From Gaiellaceae bacterium (GTDB lineage Bacteria; Actinomycetota; Thermoleophilia; Gaiellales; Gaiellaceae): a stretch of 64,000 nucleotides of DNA. Of the stretch, positions 2,324-61,861 are shown piece after piece. The stretch's first letter is position 1. The number at the start of each line of letters is the position of its first letter. The notes beneath the pieces are model-generated. The model made no database searches, was not told the DNA's origin, and was given only the letters and a program-made list of their open reading frames with translations. Position numbers and translations under genes: made by a program. The stretch is taken from NCBI GenBank assembly GCA_035265935.1, contig DATFOC010000076.1:4084-68083 (forward strand), in the 5' to 3' direction.

Positions 2324-2889
2324 CGCTGGATGGATAGCAGGAGACCGGCCGTGAACTCGGCGGCACCACCGTGCGAGGGGTGCCGGACGTACTCGCCGCC
2401 GAGCACGGCGTGCGCCACACGGCCGACGGCGATCGGGACCCGGCCGACCAGCAACTCCTCGAGAAACGGCATGCCGCCACGTATTTCGACCGTCGTCGGC
2501 CGCCGGTTCGCGCCAACCGTCCCCGGATGGCTCGGCACCACGTTCCAGAGCAGCACGTCGTCCGCGATTCCGAGCTCGTCGAGCGTGCGCTGGACGATCG
2601 TCGCGGTCGCCTCCGCAGGCCCGGTTCCGGTCAGCTGGCGCTGGGACGTGAACGGGATCCCGCTCACGCGCGCGCCGCGATAGCCGGCGGCTTCGCCGAC
2701 GAGGACGTAACGCGCCTCTCGGCGCCGCTCGAGATACCCGCCGAGCCGGTCGCGACAGACGGCCGACTCCGCGTACTGGTTGAACGTCCGGCCGATCCGC
2801 GCCGCGGCGAGCCGTCGCACGAACGCACGAACGTTTAGGGGTCGGCGAAGGTCGGAATCAGAAACAGACACTTCCGAGGAGGTAAGCAT
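2320..2889 (-). CDS. Uracil-DNA glycosylase superfamily protein
   Basis: ORF 2320..2970 contains the UDG-like motif VLVGEAAGYRGARVSGIPFTS and a C-terminal HPSHGG. I prefer the internal ATG at 2889 (MLTSSEV...). The start is uncertain. Confidence 0.65.
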   Translation of the reverse strand: MLTSSEVSVSDSDLRRPLNVRAFVRRLAAARIGRTFNQYAESAVCRDRLGGYLERRREARYVLVGEAAGYRGARVSGIPFTSQRQLTGTGPAEATATIVQRTLDELGIADDVLLWNVVPSHPGTVGANRRPTTVEIRGGMPFLEELLVGRVPIAVGRVAHAVLGGEYVRHPSHGGAAEFTAGLLLSIQR

Positions 2890-3013
2890 GCGTATCCGTG
2901 TCCCGACGAAGTCGCGGCGCAGCAGAACACCATGGGTGGTCGCCGGGCTCGCGGCTGCCGGTGTCGCCATCGCCGGCGCGGCAGCGGCGCGAAAGTTCCG
3001 GTCCGACGACTAG
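2888..3013 (+). CDS. Small (41 aa) single-TM protein
   Basis: ATG at 2888 is preceded by a strong SD (GAGGAGG, 5-nt spacer). Product is MRIRVPTKSRRSRTPWVVAGLAAAGVAIAGAAAARKFRSDD: basic N-terminus, hydrophobic helix, charged tail. Confidence 0.4.
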   Translation: MRIRVPTKSRRSRTPWVVAGLAAAGVAIAGAAAARKFRSDD

Positions 3014-7308: not shown

Positions 7309-8465
7309 TAGCCCATCCCGATCTGCTGCGCCTTCTGGAGCCCCTTGCCCTCGGTCTTGATCGCCGGCGCCAGCATGATCTCGGCCTTCTGGAAGTCATG
7401 GATCGACTCGTAGCCGCAGGTCGCCATGGCGGTGCGCAACGCCCCCATCAGGTTCAGCGTTCCGTCGTTCTCGGTCGCCGGGCCGATCACGATCTCCTCC
7501 AGCGTGGCGGGCTGGTCGACCTGCACGCGGGCACCGCGGGGAAGCGTCGGGTGGAACGTCGCCATCCCCCAGTGGTAGCCGCGGCCTGGCGCCTCCTTGG
7601 CGCGGGCGAGCGGTGAGCCGACCATGACGGCGTCGGCGCCGCAGGCGATCGCCTTCGCGATGTCGCCACCGGTTCGCATCCCGCCATCGGCGATCACGTT
7701 CACGTAGTTGCCGGTCTCGAGCAGATGCTGGACACGTGCCGCGCTGGCGTCCGAGATCGCCGTCGCCTGTGGAACACCGACGCCGAGCACGCCGCGTGTC
7801 GTGCACGCCGCTCCCGGCCCGACGCCGACGAGCACCGCTTCGGCGCCCGTCCTCATCAGGTGCAGCGCCGTCTGGTACGAGGCGCAGCCGCCGACGATCA
7901 CCGGAATCGGGATCTCCGCGATGAACTCCTTCAGGTTCAGGGCGGCCCCGTTGGACGAGACGTGCTCGGCCGAGACGACCGTTCCCTGGATGACGAGGAC
8001 GTCGAGCCCGGCGGCAAGCGCGATCTCGTAGTGGTCGCGGACCCGCTGAGGCGTCAGCGAGCCGGCGACGAGGACGCCTCTCGACTTGATCTCCTCGATC
8101 CGCCGCGCGATCAGCCGGGGCTCGACCGGCTGCTCGTAGATCTTCTGCATCATCGCCGTTGCCTTCTCCTTGGGCGCCTTGGCGATCTTGGTCAGCTGGA
8201 TGTCCGCGTCGTCGTAGCGGCTGAAGATCCCCTCGAGGTTGAGGACGCCCAGGCCTCCGAGCTCCCCGAGCTTGATCGCGATCTCCGGCGACACCACCCC
8301 GTCCATCGCGGAGCCGAGCAGCGGCAGCTCCAGCAGGTGCGGGCCGAGCTTCCAGCCGATGTCGACGTCCTGTGGGTCTCGCGTCCGTCGGCTCGGCACG
8401 ATCGCGATGTCGTCGAAGCCGTAGGCCTGACGCGCCTTCTTCCCTCGCCCGATCTCAATCTCCAT
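7308..8465 (-). CDS. guaB3: GuaB3-type IMP dehydrogenase-related protein
   Basis: 385 aa. [31 protein letters not shown]... and an IMPDH-like TIM barrel without a CBS insert, as in actinobacterial GuaB3. Strong SD AGGAGGAG. Confidence 0.9.
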
Positions 8466-8477
8466 GGGCTCCTCCTA

Positions 8478-8517
8478 GAAGCACAAAGGCCCAGGCTCCT
8501 CGCGGTTGGCCTGGGCC
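8478..8517 (-). terminator. GC-rich hairpin plus T-rich tail on the minus strand (terminator or attenuator) just upstream of the guaB3 SD
   Basis: GGCCCAGGC (8488-8496) pairs with GCCTGGGCC (8509-8517) around a 12-nt loop. On the minus strand it is followed by TTTGTGCTTC, then AGGAGGAG-ATG of guaB3. Confidence 0.4.
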
Positions 8518-8585
8518 GAAAGACCTCGCTGTGTCAATCCCTTTCAATCGAGAATCGATCGTAACAGCGGGCCTTGACGGCATCG

Positions 8586-8754
8586 GGAGGGCTTGGTGGA
8601 ACGTCGCTCGTCGCAGGCGTGCGATGCTCGTTCCGAGGCAAGGACGCAGGGAGCGTTCGTATCGATGAGATACGGGCGCGAACTGAGGACGCAGACCTCG
8701 GGGCGAAGCAGCGCGGCGGCCCTGCGGCACAGTCGTCGTTTCGCCAAGCCCTCC
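8586..8754. repeat. Foldback element B: 169-nt long imperfect hairpin
   Basis: GGAGGGCTTGG (8586-8596) pairs perfectly with CCAAGCCCTCC (8744-8754). The helix continues inward (8597-8606/8734-8743, 8610-8617/8721-8728, 8621-8638/8696-8714) to an apical hairpin at 8653-8679. Confidence 0.7.
8652..8680. promoter_or_regulatory. Apex dyad AGCG-TT-C-GTATC-GATGA-GATAC-G-GG-CGCG
   Basis: The same 29-bp dyad architecture occurs at 10807-10835 and 61738-61766, with an AT-rich core in a GC-rich context. Confidence 0.5.
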
Positions 8755-8757
8755 TTA

Positions 8758-9783
8758 TCAGCGGTTCCAATGGGGGTAGGCGACTGCACCGGTGATCAGC
8801 TCGCGCGCCCGGAGGGCTGCGACCGAGTAAATGCGGATCGTGCACGGCAACTCGGCGCGGCAGGCCGCGCCGACGACGTTGCGCCCGTCCCGAGACGGAT
8901 GGTCGGCGTACATGGGCTGCTCTCGCCGCGTCCGGCGGTCGAGGTCCACAGCATGGGCTCGACCCGAGTGCCTGTTCACGAGTGCGAGCTCCGCGCCCCA
9001 CTCCGTGGGAATCGTCGCGAGGAGGAGCGGCGAGCGGGAGACCCAGGCGAATGGTCTGACGCCGTATCGACCGAGCTCGGCGAACCGATTCGGAAGCGTC
9101 CGCATTACGGGCGCCCGCTGCCCTCCTTTGGTCCCCATCTGCCAGATCCGCGGCTTGAAGCAACCGGTGCCCACCGGCCGGTAGGCGAAGACGATCGAGT
9201 CTGTCCCCCAGACTGGGTGGCTGCTCCGACCACCCGTGGTCAAGCGACGTTTCGAGCTCCCGTCGATCTGGGCGCTGTAGATGTCGAACCCGCACTCGCC
9301 GGAGGGCGGCCGAGGGAGGTAGACGTCGTACGCGAGCGTGGCTCCGTCCGGCGAGATGCTCCACGTGGTCACCTCACGCCCCTCGATCATGTCGACGCTT
9401 CGATCCTCCAGGTCGATGTTGACGAATGCCTTTCGTTGAAAGGCCAGCAGATGGCCGGAGTCGGGTAGCCATCCCGCCGGCTTCGCCCAAGCGATGAAGC
9501 GCTCGCCGCGGCCGTTGGGGTCGACCGTGTAGATCCCGCCCCGCCGCGAGATCGCGATCGTCCGGCCGTCGGGCGAGACCAGCCCGTAGTGCCCGAGCGC
9601 CAGTCGTCTCATTCGGGTGCCGTTGACGTCGCCGATCCAGACCGCCTTCTGTGGCTTTCCGACGGCCTTCGTGTAGACGAGGTGCTTGGAGGACAGCGCG
9701 GCAGTCGGTGCAGTGTCGTCACCGATCCCGCAGGCGGAGCAGAGAAGGGCGGCCGCCGCGATGAGCGCCGCCCGCGTCATCAC
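8758..9783 (-). CDS. Lipoprotein with TolB-like (PD40/WD40-like) beta-propeller repeats
   Basis: 341 aa. Lipobox signal (LIAAAALLCSACG) and repeated SPDGR/ISPDG motifs typical of PD40 repeats. Confidence 0.75.
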   Translation of the reverse strand: MMTRAALIAAAALLCSACGIGDDTAPTAALSSKHLVYTKAVGKPQKAVWIGDVNGTRMRRLALGHYGLVSPDGRTIAISRRGGIYTVDPNGRGERFIAWAKPAGWLPDSGHLLAFQRKAFVNIDLEDRSVDMIEGREVTTWSISPDGATLAYDVYLPRPPSGECGFDIYSAQIDGSSKRRLTTGGRSSHPVWGTDSIVFAYRPVGTGCFKPRIWQMGTKGGQRAPVMRTLPNRFAELGRYGVRPFAWVSRSPLLLATIPTEWGAELALVNRHSGRAHAVDLDRRTRREQPMYADHPSRDGRNVVGAACRAELPCTIRIYSVAALRARELITGAVAYPHWNR

Positions 9784-10739
9784 AACTCCGAGGGAACGGG
9801 CTCGAGCTTCTCGATCTTCACGCCTTCGGCGAGTCGCGTCAGCTCGCGCGGCTCGAACCGGCCGGCGCCGACCTCCTGGACCGCAGCGGCTCCGGCCGCG
9901 ACCGCCCGCTGGAGTGCCTCCTCGGGAGCGAGGTCGTCGAGCCGCGCGGCCATGTAGCCGGCCAGGAGCACGTCGCCCGACCCGGCCGGCGAGACCGTCG
10001 CGACCTCGGGCACCGCGGCGTGGAACCGCTCGACCTCGCGCTCCGCCCGGAGCAGCGCGTAGCAGCCCGAGCTGAGCGTGATCAGGACGTTCCTGGCGCC
10101 CAGGTCGGAGATGTGGTCGAGCGCCTGGACGAAGTCCTGCGGGTCGTGGAACTCCTGCCCGACGAGCCCTTCGGCCTCCCGCTCGTTCGGCGTGACGAGG
10201 AACGGCTCCGCCTCCGTTCCGAGCCGGAGCGGTTGTCCCTCCGCGTCGAGAATCGCCCGGATCCCGCGCCGCTCCAGCTCGCGAATCGCCTCCGCGTAGA
10301 AGCCCTCTTCCACACCGCGCGGCAGCGTGCCTGCGAAGACGACCGCGTCAGCGCCGCGCGAGAGGTAGCGGACCTTCTCCAACAGGAGCTCGAGCTCTTC
10401 CGGCGTCACGTGCGGCCCCCACTCGTTGATCTCCGTGTACGTGCCGCCGGTCGGGTCGACGACGGCCGTGGAGGTTCGCGACTCCTCGCCGATTCGCACG
10501 AAGTCGTTGAGGATCCCCTCGCGGGTGAGCTCGCTGACGACCCGCGCGCCGGTGCGGCCGCCTGCCAGCCCGGTGGCAACGACTGGGACGTCCATCCGTT
10601 TCAGCGCGCGGGCGATGTTGACTCCCTTGCCGCCGGCGAGCGTCAGGCCGGCGCTCGCTCGGTGGCGCTGGCCGGGCTGAAAGTTGGGGACCGTCACCGT
10701 GCGGTCGAGGGCCGCGTTCATGGTCACCGTCACGATCAT
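9780..10739 (-). CDS. pfkB: 1-phosphofructokinase family sugar kinase (PfkB/ribokinase fold)
   Basis: 319 aa. MIVTVTMNAALDRT..., GGKGVNIARAL and the C-terminal anion-hole motif SPAGSGDVLLAG are typical of FruK/PfkB kinases. Confidence 0.85.
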   Translation of the reverse strand: MIVTVTMNAALDRTVTVPNFQPGQRHRASAGLTLAGGKGVNIARALKRMDVPVVATGLAGGRTGARVVSELTREGILNDFVRIGEESRTSTAVVDPTGGTYTEINEWGPHVTPEELELLLEKVRYLSRGADAVVFAGTLPRGVEEGFYAEAIRELERRGIRAILDAEGQPLRLGTEAEPFLVTPNEREAEGLVGQEFHDPQDFVQALDHISDLGARNVLITLSSGCYALLRAEREVERFHAAVPEVATVSPAGSGDVLLAGYMAARLDDLAPEEALQRAVAAGAAAVQEVGAGRFEPRELTRLAEGVKIEKLEPVPSEL

Positions 10740-10740
10740 G

Positions 10741-10902
10741 TGACCCTCCCGGTGACGTTGCCGCGTTCCTGGCGTGCGAAAAACGCCTCAGGCCTGCCAG
10801 GAAGGGCGCGTGCATATCCAAGGGATATGTGCGCGACCGAGGGGCGCGCGTGAGGTGATTTTGCAGCCGCCAGGGACACGGAGGGCGTTGCCGGGATGGT
10901 CA
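10741..10902. repeat. Foldback element C: 162-nt long imperfect hairpin filling the carboxypeptidase/pfkB spacer
   Basis: The outer stem pairs 10741-10759 with 10884-10902 (18 of 19 positions pair, 4 of them G:T). The helix continues through 10761-10774/10868-10881 and 10776-10790/10851-10864 to the apex CATATCC-AAG-GGATATG (10813-10829). Confidence 0.7.
10807..10835. promoter_or_regulatory. Apex dyad CGCG-TG-C-ATATC-CAAGG-GATAT-G-TG-CGCG (candidate operator or RNA apical stem)
   Basis: Near-perfect 29-bp palindrome about 70-95 nt upstream of the pfkB start. Shared with 8652-8680 and 61738-61766. Confidence 0.5.
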
Positions 10903-12018
10903 CCTAAACCAGCCTCCAATGTGATCCAGTGTGCGACCCGCATACCAGCCGGTGCGGTCGAAGAAGCCAGGGTCGTCGCGCGCCTCGGCCGCGATGAGCG
11001 GCGTCCGTCCGAGGAGACGCTTGCGGTCGTAGAAGCGGACCTCGCCGACGACTTGTCCCTCGCGGACGGGAAGGTCGAGCCGGGACGGCAGGACGACGCG
11101 CTCCACCAGCGGCCGCCCGATCCGGACCGGTCTCCGCATCGGCCGCGCGGCGACGACGGAAACCGGCTCCGAGCCCCACTCCGCGGGGATCCGGCCATAG
11201 ACACGGTCCGCCGACGCGAGCGGCACGAACGCGTACCGCGACATGCCCCAGGCGAGCAGCTCCTCGAGGTCCGCGTTGCGGACGGCGCGCGACGGGCTTC
11301 CGAGAATCGTCGCGTAGATCGTCACGTGGTTGCCGCGGGCTGCCGCGACCTGATTCCACCCGGCGCCGGAGGTGTGGCCGGTCTTGACGCCGAAGGTGCC
11401 CGGGAACTCGCCCAGGAGGTCGTTCCAGGTGTGGAGCGTCCGGCCGCCGGAGATCGAAGCCGACTCCTGGCGCACCAGCTGACGGATTATCGGCTCGCGC
11501 ATGGCGGCCATCGCGAGCTTCGTGACGTCCCGAGCGCTCGAGTAGTGGCCCTGCGCGTCGAGCCCATCCGGCCGGACGAAGCGCGTGTCGGGAAGCCCGA
11601 TGCTGCCGGCCGTGTTGTTCATCAGCGTCGGGAACGGCTCCCCGACCCGACCCCCGACGAACTCTCCTAGCGCAACGGCCGAGTCGTTCGCGCTCTGAAT
11701 CAGCGCGGCCGCCATCAGCTCGCGGACGCGGATCCGCTCCCCGGCGCGCAGACGGATCGTCGACCCGGTCACGCCGACGGCGTCTGGATCGACAGTCACC
11801 AGCTCGTTCGGCCTCGCGTGGGCCACGGTAAGCAAGGCGGTCATCAGCTTCGTGATGCTCGCGATCGGCAGCCGATCGTGAGCCCGGCGGGCAAGCAGCA
11901 CCTCGCCCGTCTGCGCCTCCTGCACGAGGTAGGCGCGAGCGTCGACCTCAGGAGTCGCCGCGGACGCGGCTGAGGTCGAACAGGCAAGGACAGCGACAAG
12001 GACCGCCAGTCGCTTCAC
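10900..12018 (-). CDS. D-alanyl-D-alanine carboxypeptidase (serine peptidase S11, PBP5 type)
   Basis: 372 aa. Signal peptide, SxxK active site (ASITKLMT), SGN-like and KTG (VKTGHT) motifs. Confidence 0.85.
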   Translation of the reverse strand: MKRLAVLVAVLACSTSAASAATPEVDARAYLVQEAQTGEVLLARRAHDRLPIASITKLMTALLTVAHARPNELVTVDPDAVGVTGSTIRLRAGERIRVRELMAAALIQSANDSAVALGEFVGGRVGEPFPTLMNNTAGSIGLPDTRFVRPDGLDAQGHYSSARDVTKLAMAAMREPIIRQLVRQESASISGGRTLHTWNDLLGEFPGTFGVKTGHTSGAGWNQVAAARGNHVTIYATILGSPSRAVRNADLEELLAWGMSRYAFVPLASADRVYGRIPAEWGSEPVSVVAARPMRRPVRIGRPLVERVVLPSRLDLPVREGQVVGEVRFYDRKRLLGRTPLIAAEARDDPGFFDRTGWYAGRTLDHIGGWFR

Positions 12019-30606: not shown

Positions 30607-31428
30607 CTAGGAGCGATCGCCGACGACGTTTCTCAGCACCCCGATCCGCTCGACCTCGAGCTCGACCTCATCGCCCGGCTGGAGCCAGCGCCCGTCACAG
30701 TGCTCCAAGATGCAGCCGGTCCCGACGGTGCCGGAACCGAGGACGTCGCCGGGCCAGAGCTCGGTGTTCCGGCCCGCCTGCTCGACGATGCGATTCCACG
30801 GGTGGTAGAGGTCGGCCAGATTCCCGCGCGAGCGCTCTTCGCCGTTCACGCGGGCGACCATGACGGCCGACGAGCCGTCGAACTCATCCGGCGTGACGAC
30901 GACCGGGCCGAGGCTCGTCGCGAAGTCCTTGCCCTTGGCAGGCCCGAGGCCGACCTTCATCTCTTCGCGCTGGACGTCACGCGCGGACCAGTCGTTCATG
31001 ATTGTGAAGCCGCCGATCTGCCCGTCAGCGCCGATCACCGCCGCGACTTCGAGCTCGTAGTCGAGCTCGTTCGTATCGCCGGGATACGGGATCTCGGCCT
31101 CCGGCCCATAGATCACGCTGGGGTTCGAGAAGTAGAAGACCGGAATGCGGTACCACTCCTCCGGCACCTCCAGGTCACGCTTCGCGCGCGCCGCCTTGAC
31201 GTGCTGCTCGAAGGCGTAGAAGTCGCGGACGGACGGCGGGTGCAGCACCGGCGGCCGGAGCTCGACCTCGGCGAGCGGGTACTCGGCGTGCTCGCGCGCC
31301 TTTCCGCCGCCCGTGAAGAACGACTGGAGCGTCTGCGCGGCGAGCTGGATCACGCGGTCGCCCTCGATCCGGCCCGGCCACCCGCGCTGGAGCTCGGCCC
31401 CTTTGGGGCTGAACATGCACAACTTCAC
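30607..31428 (-). CDS. Fumarylacetoacetate hydrolase (FAH) family protein, short type
   Basis: 273 aa. DYELEVAAVIG, NDWSARD, GKDF and GDVLGSGT motifs of the FAH fold. Confidence 0.88.
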   Translation of the reverse strand: MKLCMFSPKGAELQRGWPGRIEGDRVIQLAAQTLQSFFTGGGKAREHAEYPLAEVELRPPVLHPPSVRDFYAFEQHVKAARAKRDLEVPEEWYRIPVFYFSNPSVIYGPEAEIPYPGDTNELDYELEVAAVIGADGQIGGFTIMNDWSARDVQREEMKVGLGPAKGKDFATSLGPVVVTPDEFDGSSAVMVARVNGEERSRGNLADLYHPWNRIVEQAGRNTELWPGDVLGSGTVGTGCILEHCDGRWLQPGDEVELEVERIGVLRNVVGDRS

Positions 31429-60669: not shown

Positions 60670-60835
60670 CAGTGCCTCTGCAGGTAATGCAGCCCCGCTT
60701 CTGGGTCGTGAGCACCAAGCCAGAGACCGCACTCGCCCGCAGCCAAGGCTGAGAGCCTTGGTAAGGGCGAGGGTGGGCTCTGGCGCCGCGTGATCACGGG
60801 CCAGAAGCCGGCGTGTATTGCCTGTAGAGGCACTG
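60670..60835. repeat. Foldback element A: 166-nt long imperfect hairpin filling the whole C-N hydrolase/HAD spacer
   Basis: CAGTGCCTCTGCAGGTAAT (60670-60688) pairs with ATTGCCTGTAGAGGCACTG (60817-60835), with 2 G:T pairs. Inner helices are 60697-60704/60801-60808 and 60719-60738/60765-60784. The apex is CCAAGGCT-GAG-AGCCTTGG (60743-60761). Confidence 0.7.
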
Positions 60836-61561
60836 TTACGGCGTAGGAGTTGGCCACCGGTAGGCATCTGCCTGCCTGCTGGCCAGCGAGGGAAGCTTCG
60901 CGCGAACGTTCTCGAGCCGACGCCTGTCGAGCTCTGCGGAGATCACCGTCTCCTCGTCCGGCGCACACGCGACCACGGTCCCCCACGGATCCGCGATCAG
61001 CGAGCGCCCGTAGCTGAGACGCCCCGGCAGCGTCTCGCCGATCTGGGCCGCGGCCGCGACGTAGTACTGATTCTCGACTGCACGGGCACGGAGCAGCAGC
61101 TCCCAGTGATCCTTTCCGGTGTACAGCGTGAAATGCGCCGGAACCGTGACGAGGTGCGCGCCCTGGAGCGCGAGGATCCGGTAAAGCTCGGGGAAGCGGA
61201 CGTCGTAGCAGACGGTCAGCCCGGTGGCCCAGCCTTCCACCTCGAGGACGACCGGCTCGGCGCCCGGCTCCTCCGCGTCCGACTCCCGATACACGTGGCC
61301 GCCGACCTCGACGTCGAACATGTGGATCTTCCGGTAGAGGCCGGCGATCGACCCGTCCGACTCGAAGACGATGCTCGTGTTGGAGAGCTTGTCGCGACCC
61401 TCCCGACGCTCGGTGATCGAGCCGCCGACGAGCGTGATCCCGTGCCCGCTCGCCCAGGCCGCCATCGCCTGAACCGACTCGCCGTCCTCGAGCGTCTCCG
61501 CTGCACCATGGAGCACGTCGGGGGTGCCGATCGCGTTCCACTTCTCCGGGAGGACGACCAC
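60836..61561 (-). CDS. Carbon-nitrogen hydrolase (nitrilase superfamily); true start probably upstream (CTG at 61684)
   Basis: The ORF track starts at GTG 61561 (MVVLPEKWN). The same frame upstream encodes the conserved N-terminus ...LRVACVQLTSRDDKAANIEKAEQLVARAAATGAD without an ATG/GTG/TTG. Catalytic Cys region: GLTVCYDVRFPE. Confidence 0.85.
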   Translation of the reverse strand: MVVLPEKWNAIGTPDVLHGAAETLEDGESVQAMAAWASGHGITLVGGSITERREGRDKLSNTSIVFESDGSIAGLYRKIHMFDVEVGGHVYRESDAEEPGAEPVVLEVEGWATGLTVCYDVRFPELYRILALQGAHLVTVPAHFTLYTGKDHWELLLRARAVENQYYVAAAAQIGETLPGRLSYGRSLIADPWGTVVACAPDEETVISAELDRRRLENVRAKLPSLASRQADAYRWPTPTP

Positions 61562-61670
61562 GTCGGCGCCCGTCGCCGCCGCGCGTGCGACGAGCTGCTC
61601 GGCTTTCTCGATGTTCGCCGCCTTGTCGTCCCGGCTCGTGAGCTGGACGCAGGCGACGCGAAGCGTGTCA

Positions 61671-61833
61671 GGAGTTCGTTTCAGGGTGATGCTCGTCGTC
61701 AGGGTGCGATGGGTGGATGCCAGGCCCGGACGCAGACCGCGTCCATATCAAGTCGATATTGGCGCGGTTGAGGACGACGCCTGGCGCCGCCCAGCACGGC
61801 CTGGCGGCACAGCCTCACTCTGGAACGAGCTCC
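61671..61833. repeat. Foldback element D: 163-nt long imperfect hairpin in the divergent C-N hydrolase/MFS spacer
   Basis: Pairings: 61671-61693 with 61811-61833 (19 WC, 3 G:T, 1 mismatch); 61700-61716 with 61787-61803; 61719-61725 with 61779-61785; 61735-61744 with 61761-61769. The apex is ATATC-AAGTC-GATAT. Confidence 0.65.
61738..61766. promoter_or_regulatory. Apex dyad CGCG-TC-C-ATATC-AAGTC-GATAT-T-GG-CGCG
   Basis: In register with the dyads at 8652-8680 and 10807-10835. It lies centrally between two divergent genes. Confidence 0.5.
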
Positions 61834-61861
61834 GAGCATCCAGTGGCAGGATAGCCCCGCT

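Follow-up and report, generated by a model that had tools for sequence, protein, structure and literature searches.

The 29-bp dyad that recurs at three loci of a Gaiellaceae genome is the tip of a mobile hairpin repeat and not an operator, and this identity can be regarded as secure. It very probably forms the apical stem-loop of a mobile repeat that is non-autonomous, about 165 nt long, and an imperfect palindrome over its whole length. That the three copies adjoin guaB3, pfkB and an MFS/C-N hydrolase gene pair is accidental. The element reads as ERIC/Correia/REPIN-like but atypical. The assembly analysed (G000) is a Gaiellaceae MAG of 2.65 Mb with 68.7% G+C in 123 contigs; the stretch of 64,000 nucleotides that was analysed in detail is referred to below as the window.

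The Dyad and Its Hairpin

Re-reading of the window sequence confirmed three dyads in register, at 8652-8680 (site 1, AGCG-TT-C-GTATC-GATGA-GATAC-G-GG-CGCG), 10807-10835 (site 2, CGCG-TG-C-ATATC-CAAGG-GATAT-G-TG-CGCG), and 61738-61766 (site 3, CGCG-TC-C-ATATC-AAGTC-GATAT-T-GG-CGCG). The 29-bp consensus proposed for them, CGCG-N2-C-RTATC-N5-GATAY-G-N2-CGCG, needs some correction: it fits site 2 exactly, site 1 opens with AGCG instead of CGCG, and site 3 has T in place of G after GATAT. The gene assignments hold, namely an IMPDH-family protein and GMP synthase (guaB3-guaA), PfkB, the MFS transporter, and the C-N hydrolase. No further TATC-N5-GATA had been noticed by eye; a pattern scan of the 64-kb window gives four against 0.05 expected, and none of 100 shuffles reaches four. 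Chance as the origin of the dyad count is excluded. The extra match at 31074-31086 (context 31069-31091, TTCGTATC-GCCGG-GATACGGG) has 8+8 bases that fit the family apex consensus. It lies inside a FAA (fumarylacetoacetate)-hydrolase-family gene on the - strand (30607-31428), has no CGCG clamps, no hairpin arms, and no significant match to the covariance model R1 (12 bits, E = 0.56), and is either a chance occurrence or a relic.

The dyad makes up the apex, an 11-bp stem with a 5-nt loop, of a whole-length hairpin of about 165 nt. Each of the three loci folds as one long imperfect hairpin with the dyad at its tip (z = -4.1, -5.6, and -4.4 for copies 1, 2, and 3, respectively), and R1 run over the window finds exactly three copies, all on the + strand. 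Copy 1 (8583..8757, +; R1 155.5 bits, E = 1.3e-33, compared to 46 bits on the - strand) lies between the stop of a PD40-repeat gene and the guaB3-like IMPDH gene and has the family-typical ends GGAGGGCTTGG...CCAAGCCCTCC. Its apical helix (8653..8679, +) is composed of the 5' arm GCGTTCGTATC (8653-8663), the loop GATGA (8664-8668), and the 3' arm GATACGGGCGC (8669-8679). This is the dyad as first noted minus one flanking base per side, and it includes two T·G pairs that are present on the + strand only. The helix belongs to a constant centre (8642..8694, +) that also contains direct repeats GGACGCAG at 8642-8649 and 8687-8694, which are the two strands of a conserved internal loop, and a tandem G·A, with G8651 and A8652 opposite G8680 and A8681.

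Copy 2 (10737..10906, +; R1 95.9 bits, E = 4.8e-20) represents a sub-family with different outer stems (GTGACCCTCCCGG...CCGGGATGGTCAC) and takes up the entire spacer from the stop of the S11 carboxypeptidase gene to the start of pfkB. Copy 3 (61668..61836, +; R1 132.8 bits, E = 1.9e-28) separates the C-N hydrolase gene from the divergently oriented MFS transporter gene. The first canonical start of the C-N hydrolase gene is at 61561, and its Pfam match does not begin at profile position 1 unless the frame is extended to 61669, at the edge of copy 3 (region 61561-61669). The insertion of copy 3 seems to have cut this gene off from its original start codon. The window also holds a separate near-perfect hairpin of 166 nt (60670-60835, z = -12.4), located in the spacer that separates the C-N hydrolase gene from the HAD hydrolase gene. 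It is a different family with the apex CCAAGGCTGAGAGCCTTGG and no R1 match, and its outer stem resembles those of some R1 sub-families. There may be a wider hairpin superfamily with exchangeable centres.

Family Size and Taxonomic Spread

The whole assembly has 20 TATC-N5-GATA matches, 17 of which share long flanks. An HMM derived from the flank-sharing matches retrieved with nhmmer 45 non-overlapping copies in the 2.65-Mb genome, essentially all intergenic and many adjoining a stop codon at a distance of 0-6 nt. The genome-wide pattern search that had been expected to define a regulon therefore delivers something else, with 17 of its 20 matches falling within about 45 copies of a single 165-nt repeat. 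Only three unrelated matches carry the dyad pattern without the surrounding 165-nt hairpin, and the repeat copies of this genome occupy convergent, divergent, and co-directional gene junctions alike.

The core pattern is found in more than 117 loci of a species-level genome collection, all from MAGs labelled Gaiellaceae, Gaiellales, Thermoleophilia, or loosely Actinomycetes/Actinomycetota. A search with R1 in a sample of 151 genomes from across Thermoleophilia detected the element in 63, which belong to 39 of 73 genera and differ widely in copy number. The plasmid and phage collections gave no element match. Rfam models show nothing at the sites (one tRNA only for the window at the gathering threshold; 8440-10960 searched at E <= 10). 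No work linking Thermoleophilia to such repeats was found in the literature, and a MITE review gives no actinobacterial example. In different species, copies from the L001-L117 set lie beside the same response-regulator-like gene (17 loci) or the same large cyclase/ATPase-like gene (15 loci); they are either old conserved copies or marks of insertion hot spots. A truncated copy in G000 (contig C43, 22758-22839) retains the right half only, from the 3' arm of the dyad on, and directly follows the TAG stop of a gene.

Empty Sites and Insertion Target

Presence/absence polymorphism with precise empty sites is seen between sister genomes. A 3.5-kb query over sites 1 and 2 matches the sister genome G003 in abutting pieces, and the missing parts, 686-858 and 2848-3007, are exactly the two elements. 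Junction sequences show that G003 and G005 have no insertion at site 1. At site 2 the element is missing from 11 same-genus genomes and shared by G001 alone, and at site 3 it is missing from G003 and G001. The 150-nt flanks of 24 full-length copies were also joined and used as queries (site 3 included; sites 1 and 2, covered already, left out); most of these match sister genomes as contiguous stretches of about 300 nt, that of site 3 among them. The three window copies are recent insertions beside unrelated genes. Conservation at orthologous promoters, on which the original prediction depended, does not exist: absence from such promoters had been named as the result that would speak against an operator, and it is what is observed at all three loci, each a precise empty site in G003. 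Since all three are empty there, guaB3, pfkB, and the MFS/C-N hydrolase pair share no regulator through the dyad. A riboswitch or leader of guaB3 or pfkB is likewise ruled out by the empty sites in relatives.

The junctions favour TA. Of 18 empty sites, 11-12 have it precisely at the junction, and among 83 copies it flanks the left end in 42 and the right end in 42, compared to a genome TA frequency of 1.07%. Clean TA...TA duplications are seen at filled/empty blocks 0, 4, and 14. Only 25 of the 83 copies have TA on both sides, and TA is missing from 6 of the 18 empty sites, a group that includes all three sites of the window. The copies hug gene ends because TA, in a genome of 69% G+C, concentrates in TAG/TAA stops and their complements.

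A copying of the outer stems from the target was considered and rejected: there is one striking case and no signal over 83 copies when compared with shuffled pairings. In that case (G000, contig C28, 11671-11835), the sequence flanking the element on the left, CCGGCGAGGGGC, almost repeats its right end, CCGGGTGAGGGGC, and shows complementarity to its left arm, so that this copy looks as though the target had templated its outer stem.

Covariation and Folding of One Strand

The constant centre reads, from 5' to 3', GGCAAGGACGCAGG, GA, GCGyyCGTATC, a 5-nt loop, GATACGGrCGC, GA, and CTGAGGACGC. In the alignment (A1), the columns equivalent to 8642..8694 are invariant or at least 90% conserved and the outer stems vary. 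GGACGC(A/C)G is the sequence of both internal-loop strands. In the outer stems, 40-odd base pairs either co-vary or are exchanged from one sub-family to another, and site 2 belongs to one of these sub-families.

Among 60 copies, 96.7% of cells form standard pairs and 49 of 61 pairs show two-sided changes. This level of covariation is matched by none of 500 shuffles, and no slid register comes close. Helix 7, the apical one, has 11 pairs with 98.8% of cells paired, and four apical pairs are invariant in 59-60 of the 60 copies. The fifth dyad pair, given as R/Y in the consensus, is compensatory, with GTATC/GATAC in 70 and ATATC/GATAT in 6 of 77 copies, and the next two pairs are mostly T·G. The apical loop is free to vary (44 different sequences among the 77 copies). 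The dyad is sequence-specific and at the same time part of a strand-specific helix. CGTATC/GATACG is symmetric in duplex DNA; the positions that follow (TT/GG, TG/TG, and TC/GG at the three sites), written as N2 in the proposed consensus, pair only as G·T or G·U on one strand and are therefore not symmetric in the duplex.

The non-Watson-Crick cells of 83 copies comprise 740 of the G·U type versus 53 of the A·C type, and the intermediates between CG and UA are UG, almost never CA. The consensus fold reaches -100 kcal/mol in the window + orientation as compared to -32 kcal/mol for the reverse complement. The + strand folds better than the - strand under RNA and DNA energy parameters alike. Pairing is kept on one strand only, and the structure is under selection. 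A mutational origin of the G·U excess was rejected by reasoning: deamination of the strand that is more exposed predicts A·C-type cells on the folding strand, i.e., the opposite bias, and compensated G>A as well as double changes are abundant. The fallback offered by the original prediction, a conserved apical stem-loop acting as RNA, survives in its anatomy, the dyad being the apex of a long foldback whose fold is selected on one strand. The strand may act as RNA or as single-stranded DNA; the orientation data given below argue against co-transcription of the hairpin with neighbour genes.

Orientation Relative to Genes and Replication

With respect to co-directional neighbour genes, the folding strand is antisense in 64 cases and sense in 24. 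The orientation follows replication. On 16 dnaA-bearing contigs, the rule "+ left of dnaA, - right" is obeyed by 64 of 74 copies (about 86%, p = 9e-11); after removal of the two discovery genomes, by 38 of 47 (p = 2.5e-5). The closed chromosome of G055 has ten copies between 2.32 Mb and, across the zero point, 0.41 Mb, every one of them +, followed by six copies at 0.45 to 0.94 Mb, every one of them -. The GC skew of this chromosome is too weak to place the origin, and dnaA (0.514 Mb) together with the flip in gene orientation at 0.46-0.53 Mb was used instead. G057 shows the same flip pattern around its dnaA, and long contigs without dnaA have long same-strand runs with single switches. In six cases where local genes run head-on to replication, five of the six copies follow the replichore and not the genes. 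Given that genes diverge from dnaA, the folding strand is on the leading-strand template.

All 16 copies of G055 lie within about 0.8 Mb of dnaA on either side, and the region 0.94-2.32 Mb has none. Extra strand switches with no dnaA nearby occur in G053 (= G206) contigs C1 and C3, G210 contig C5, and G213 contig C6; inversions or rearrangements, mis-joins, mixed bins, or binning errors are possible causes. The assemblies G210, G208, and G209 are unusually large (4.2-5.2 Mb). A KOPS- or Chi-like polar word was also considered and rejected: outside the copies GGACGCAG occurs 92 times on one strand and 101 times on the other and is not over-represented, the median for 8-mers of the same composition being 111 per word. 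The direction in which copies point may be of use for orienting MAG contigs with respect to the origin of replication.

Candidate Partner Enzymes

Y1_Tnp genes occur in nearly all genomes of the genus (37 of 39), and no copy was found to adjoin one. Over the 151 genomes, with absence of Y1_Tnp scored at E <= 1e-5, 23 have both Y1_Tnp and the element, 40 the element only (high-copy genomes included), 23 Y1_Tnp only, and 65 neither. The lack of adjacency and of co-occurrence speaks against a Y1/RAYT partner. An IS630-type DDE_3 partner was dismissed as well, this domain being absent from G000 and from 54 of the 63 element-bearing genomes. An autonomous parent with the same ends was sought; the half-length match in contig C43 turned out to be the truncated copy described above and no composite element. 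Clustering of 799 ORFs from 117 loci, with a recurrent neighbour gene as the possible partner, returned host genes, the response regulator, and the cyclase-like protein, and no transposase.

Possible Nature of the Element

The constant centre, dyad included, is probably the recognition module for a putative trans-acting mobilising protein, and the long stem would merely present it. What is recognised is probably a folded single strand, because the constraint acts on one strand and the copies are polarised with respect to replication. For this strand, single-stranded DNA, to which we give about an even chance, is favoured over RNA, whose chance is put distinctly lower. The polarity could result from insertion coupled to the replication fork. 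Alternatively, since long hairpins can extrude on the lagging-strand template, copies that place their well-folding strand there could be preferentially lost.

Several other explanations have to be weighed against these data. The original prediction took the dyad for a duplex operator of a dimeric HTH regulator that would co-regulate guaB3-guaA, pfkB, and the C-N hydrolase/MFS pair. CGTATC-N5-GATACG is indeed a true duplex palindrome, its sequence is invariant without covariation, its frequency is far above chance, and the four never-varying apical pairs, at those positions alone, also fit a palindrome in duplex DNA. This reading is nevertheless not supported and close to refuted: the motif extends beyond any coherent promoter set, its roughly 45 copies sit at junctions of every geometry including those between convergent gene ends, and sister genomes that retain the same genes are empty at all three loci, leaving the orthologous promoters without the dyad. 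The dyad is moreover tied to the 165-nt hairpin, three unrelated matches aside, and the flanking N2 positions pair by G·T on one strand only. A structured RNA family, i.e., small RNAs or cis-acting modules, fares better but is still unlikely. Here the dyad would be an RNA tetra/penta-loop bound by an RNA-binding protein and the dispersal would be secondary, perhaps by analogy with transcribed ERIC or Correia repeats that are processed by RNases. The covariation, the share of conserved G·U (about 9 of 61 consensus pairs, a frequency like that of RNA), the presence of typical RNA motifs in the form of a tandem G·A and an invariant internal loop, + strand z-scores of -6 to -7.6 when folded as RNA, and the copies kept beside the same gene in 15-17 species would all suit an RNA. 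It is opposed by the excess of antisense over sense copies (64 versus 24) relative to co-directional genes, the lack of a fixed gene partner, an orientation that tracks the replichore more closely than local genes, the gain and loss of copies between sister species, and the absence of an Rfam match and of any conserved promoter-like sequence outside the hairpin.

Two transposase-based readings appear slightly less probable than the RNA one. The element could be a REPIN- or PATE-like single-stranded DNA element moved by a Y1 HUH transposase (RAYT or IS200/IS605 TnpA), with the dyad as the transposase-binding hairpin. The strand-specific fold, the orientation linked to replication, the inconsistent or absent target duplication at several sites, and the frequency of Y1_Tnp in the genus (37 of 39 genomes) are consistent with this. 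However, no copy flanks a Y1 gene, 40 of the 63 element-bearing genomes, many of them with at least 10 copies, have no Y1_Tnp, there is no REP-type GTAG head, and the unconserved hairpin loop cannot hold a nick site. The polarity is also the reverse of the lagging-strand-template rule, so that a simple IS200/IS605-like pathway does not fit (PMC5027513). With a comparable, low probability, the element could be a classical double-strand MITE of a TA-duplicating IS630/Tc1-mariner-type transposase, the hairpin being a by-product of long terminal inverted repeats. TA is about 47-fold enriched at both flanks and clearly duplicated at blocks 0, 4, and 14, and the size and whole-length palindrome resemble those of RUP, Correia, and ERIC (PMC10969869). 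A transposase that binds terminal repeats, however, predicts conserved ends and a variable centre, the reverse of what is seen; 6 of 18 insertions are off TA, the DDE_3 domain is missing from G000 and from 54 of 63 element-bearing genomes, and neither one-strand pairing nor replichore polarity is expected for a symmetric duplex substrate.

We tentatively put forward a more specific form of the mobile-repeat reading, which has a better chance than any single one of these alternatives and is still well short of an even one. The element would be a new replication-polarised hairpin transposon. A putative enzyme acting at the fork would recognise its invariant centre, with the dyad, the tandem G·A, and the double GGACGC loop, on a folded single strand, namely the leading-strand template, which equals the nascent lagging strand in sequence. 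The outer stems would be free to evolve or to be exchanged. This polarity would be opposite to that of all documented single-strand transposons; in the IS200/IS605 family, the active strand is on the lagging-strand template (PMC5027513). If true, the hairpin transposon would define a Y1- and IS630-independent mobilisation pathway in a major, almost uncultured soil lineage.

Comparison with Known Repeats

The element has the features of MITEs in that it is short, non-coding, multi-copy, and has terminal inverted repeats. With ERIC, RU-2 (YPAL), Correia, and RUP it shares a length of 100-170 bp, the lack of coding capacity, tens to hundreds of intergenic copies, one long hairpin, gain and loss between strains, a preference for TA at the junction, and a location at gene ends where stop and start regions can be reshaped (PMC10969869). 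It differs from them in the invariant centre with variable ends, in the pairing kept on one strand, in an orientation that follows the replichore, and in the absence of a cognate IS630-type transposase. It is also restricted to Thermoleophilia and resembles neither those families nor any Rfam model in sequence.

REPINs (REP doublets) with their RAYTs and the IS200/IS605-derived PATEs are likewise short hairpin repeats that are thought to move as single-stranded DNA and have a replication-linked orientation (PMC5027513). Unlike these, the element neither flanks nor co-occurs with Y1 transposases, has no GTAG head, forms one rod of 165 nt instead of two short hairpins, and carries its folding strand on the leading-strand template. 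Integron attC sites are imperfect palindromes that are recognised as a folded single strand of one polarity, the stem structure outweighing the sequence, and in large chromosomal integrons the recombining strand has been reported on the leading-strand template. They are arranged in arrays beside the integrase and have conserved boxes at the base of the stem, whereas copies of the element described here are scattered one by one and have their conserved part at the tip and in the central loop.

Significance

For annotation, a false regulon can be struck out, as a selfish insertion is all that guaB3-guaA, pfkB, and the C-N hydrolase/MFS pair have in common. A constant centre with free ends, compensation on one strand, and replichore polarity with the folding strand on the leading-strand template are three features that are not combined in known bacterial MITE or REP families. 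Thermoleophilia are abundant soil bacteria with very few cultured members. No known transposase tracks the element, which makes it a testable entry point to a mobilisation or hairpin-handling mechanism in this class.
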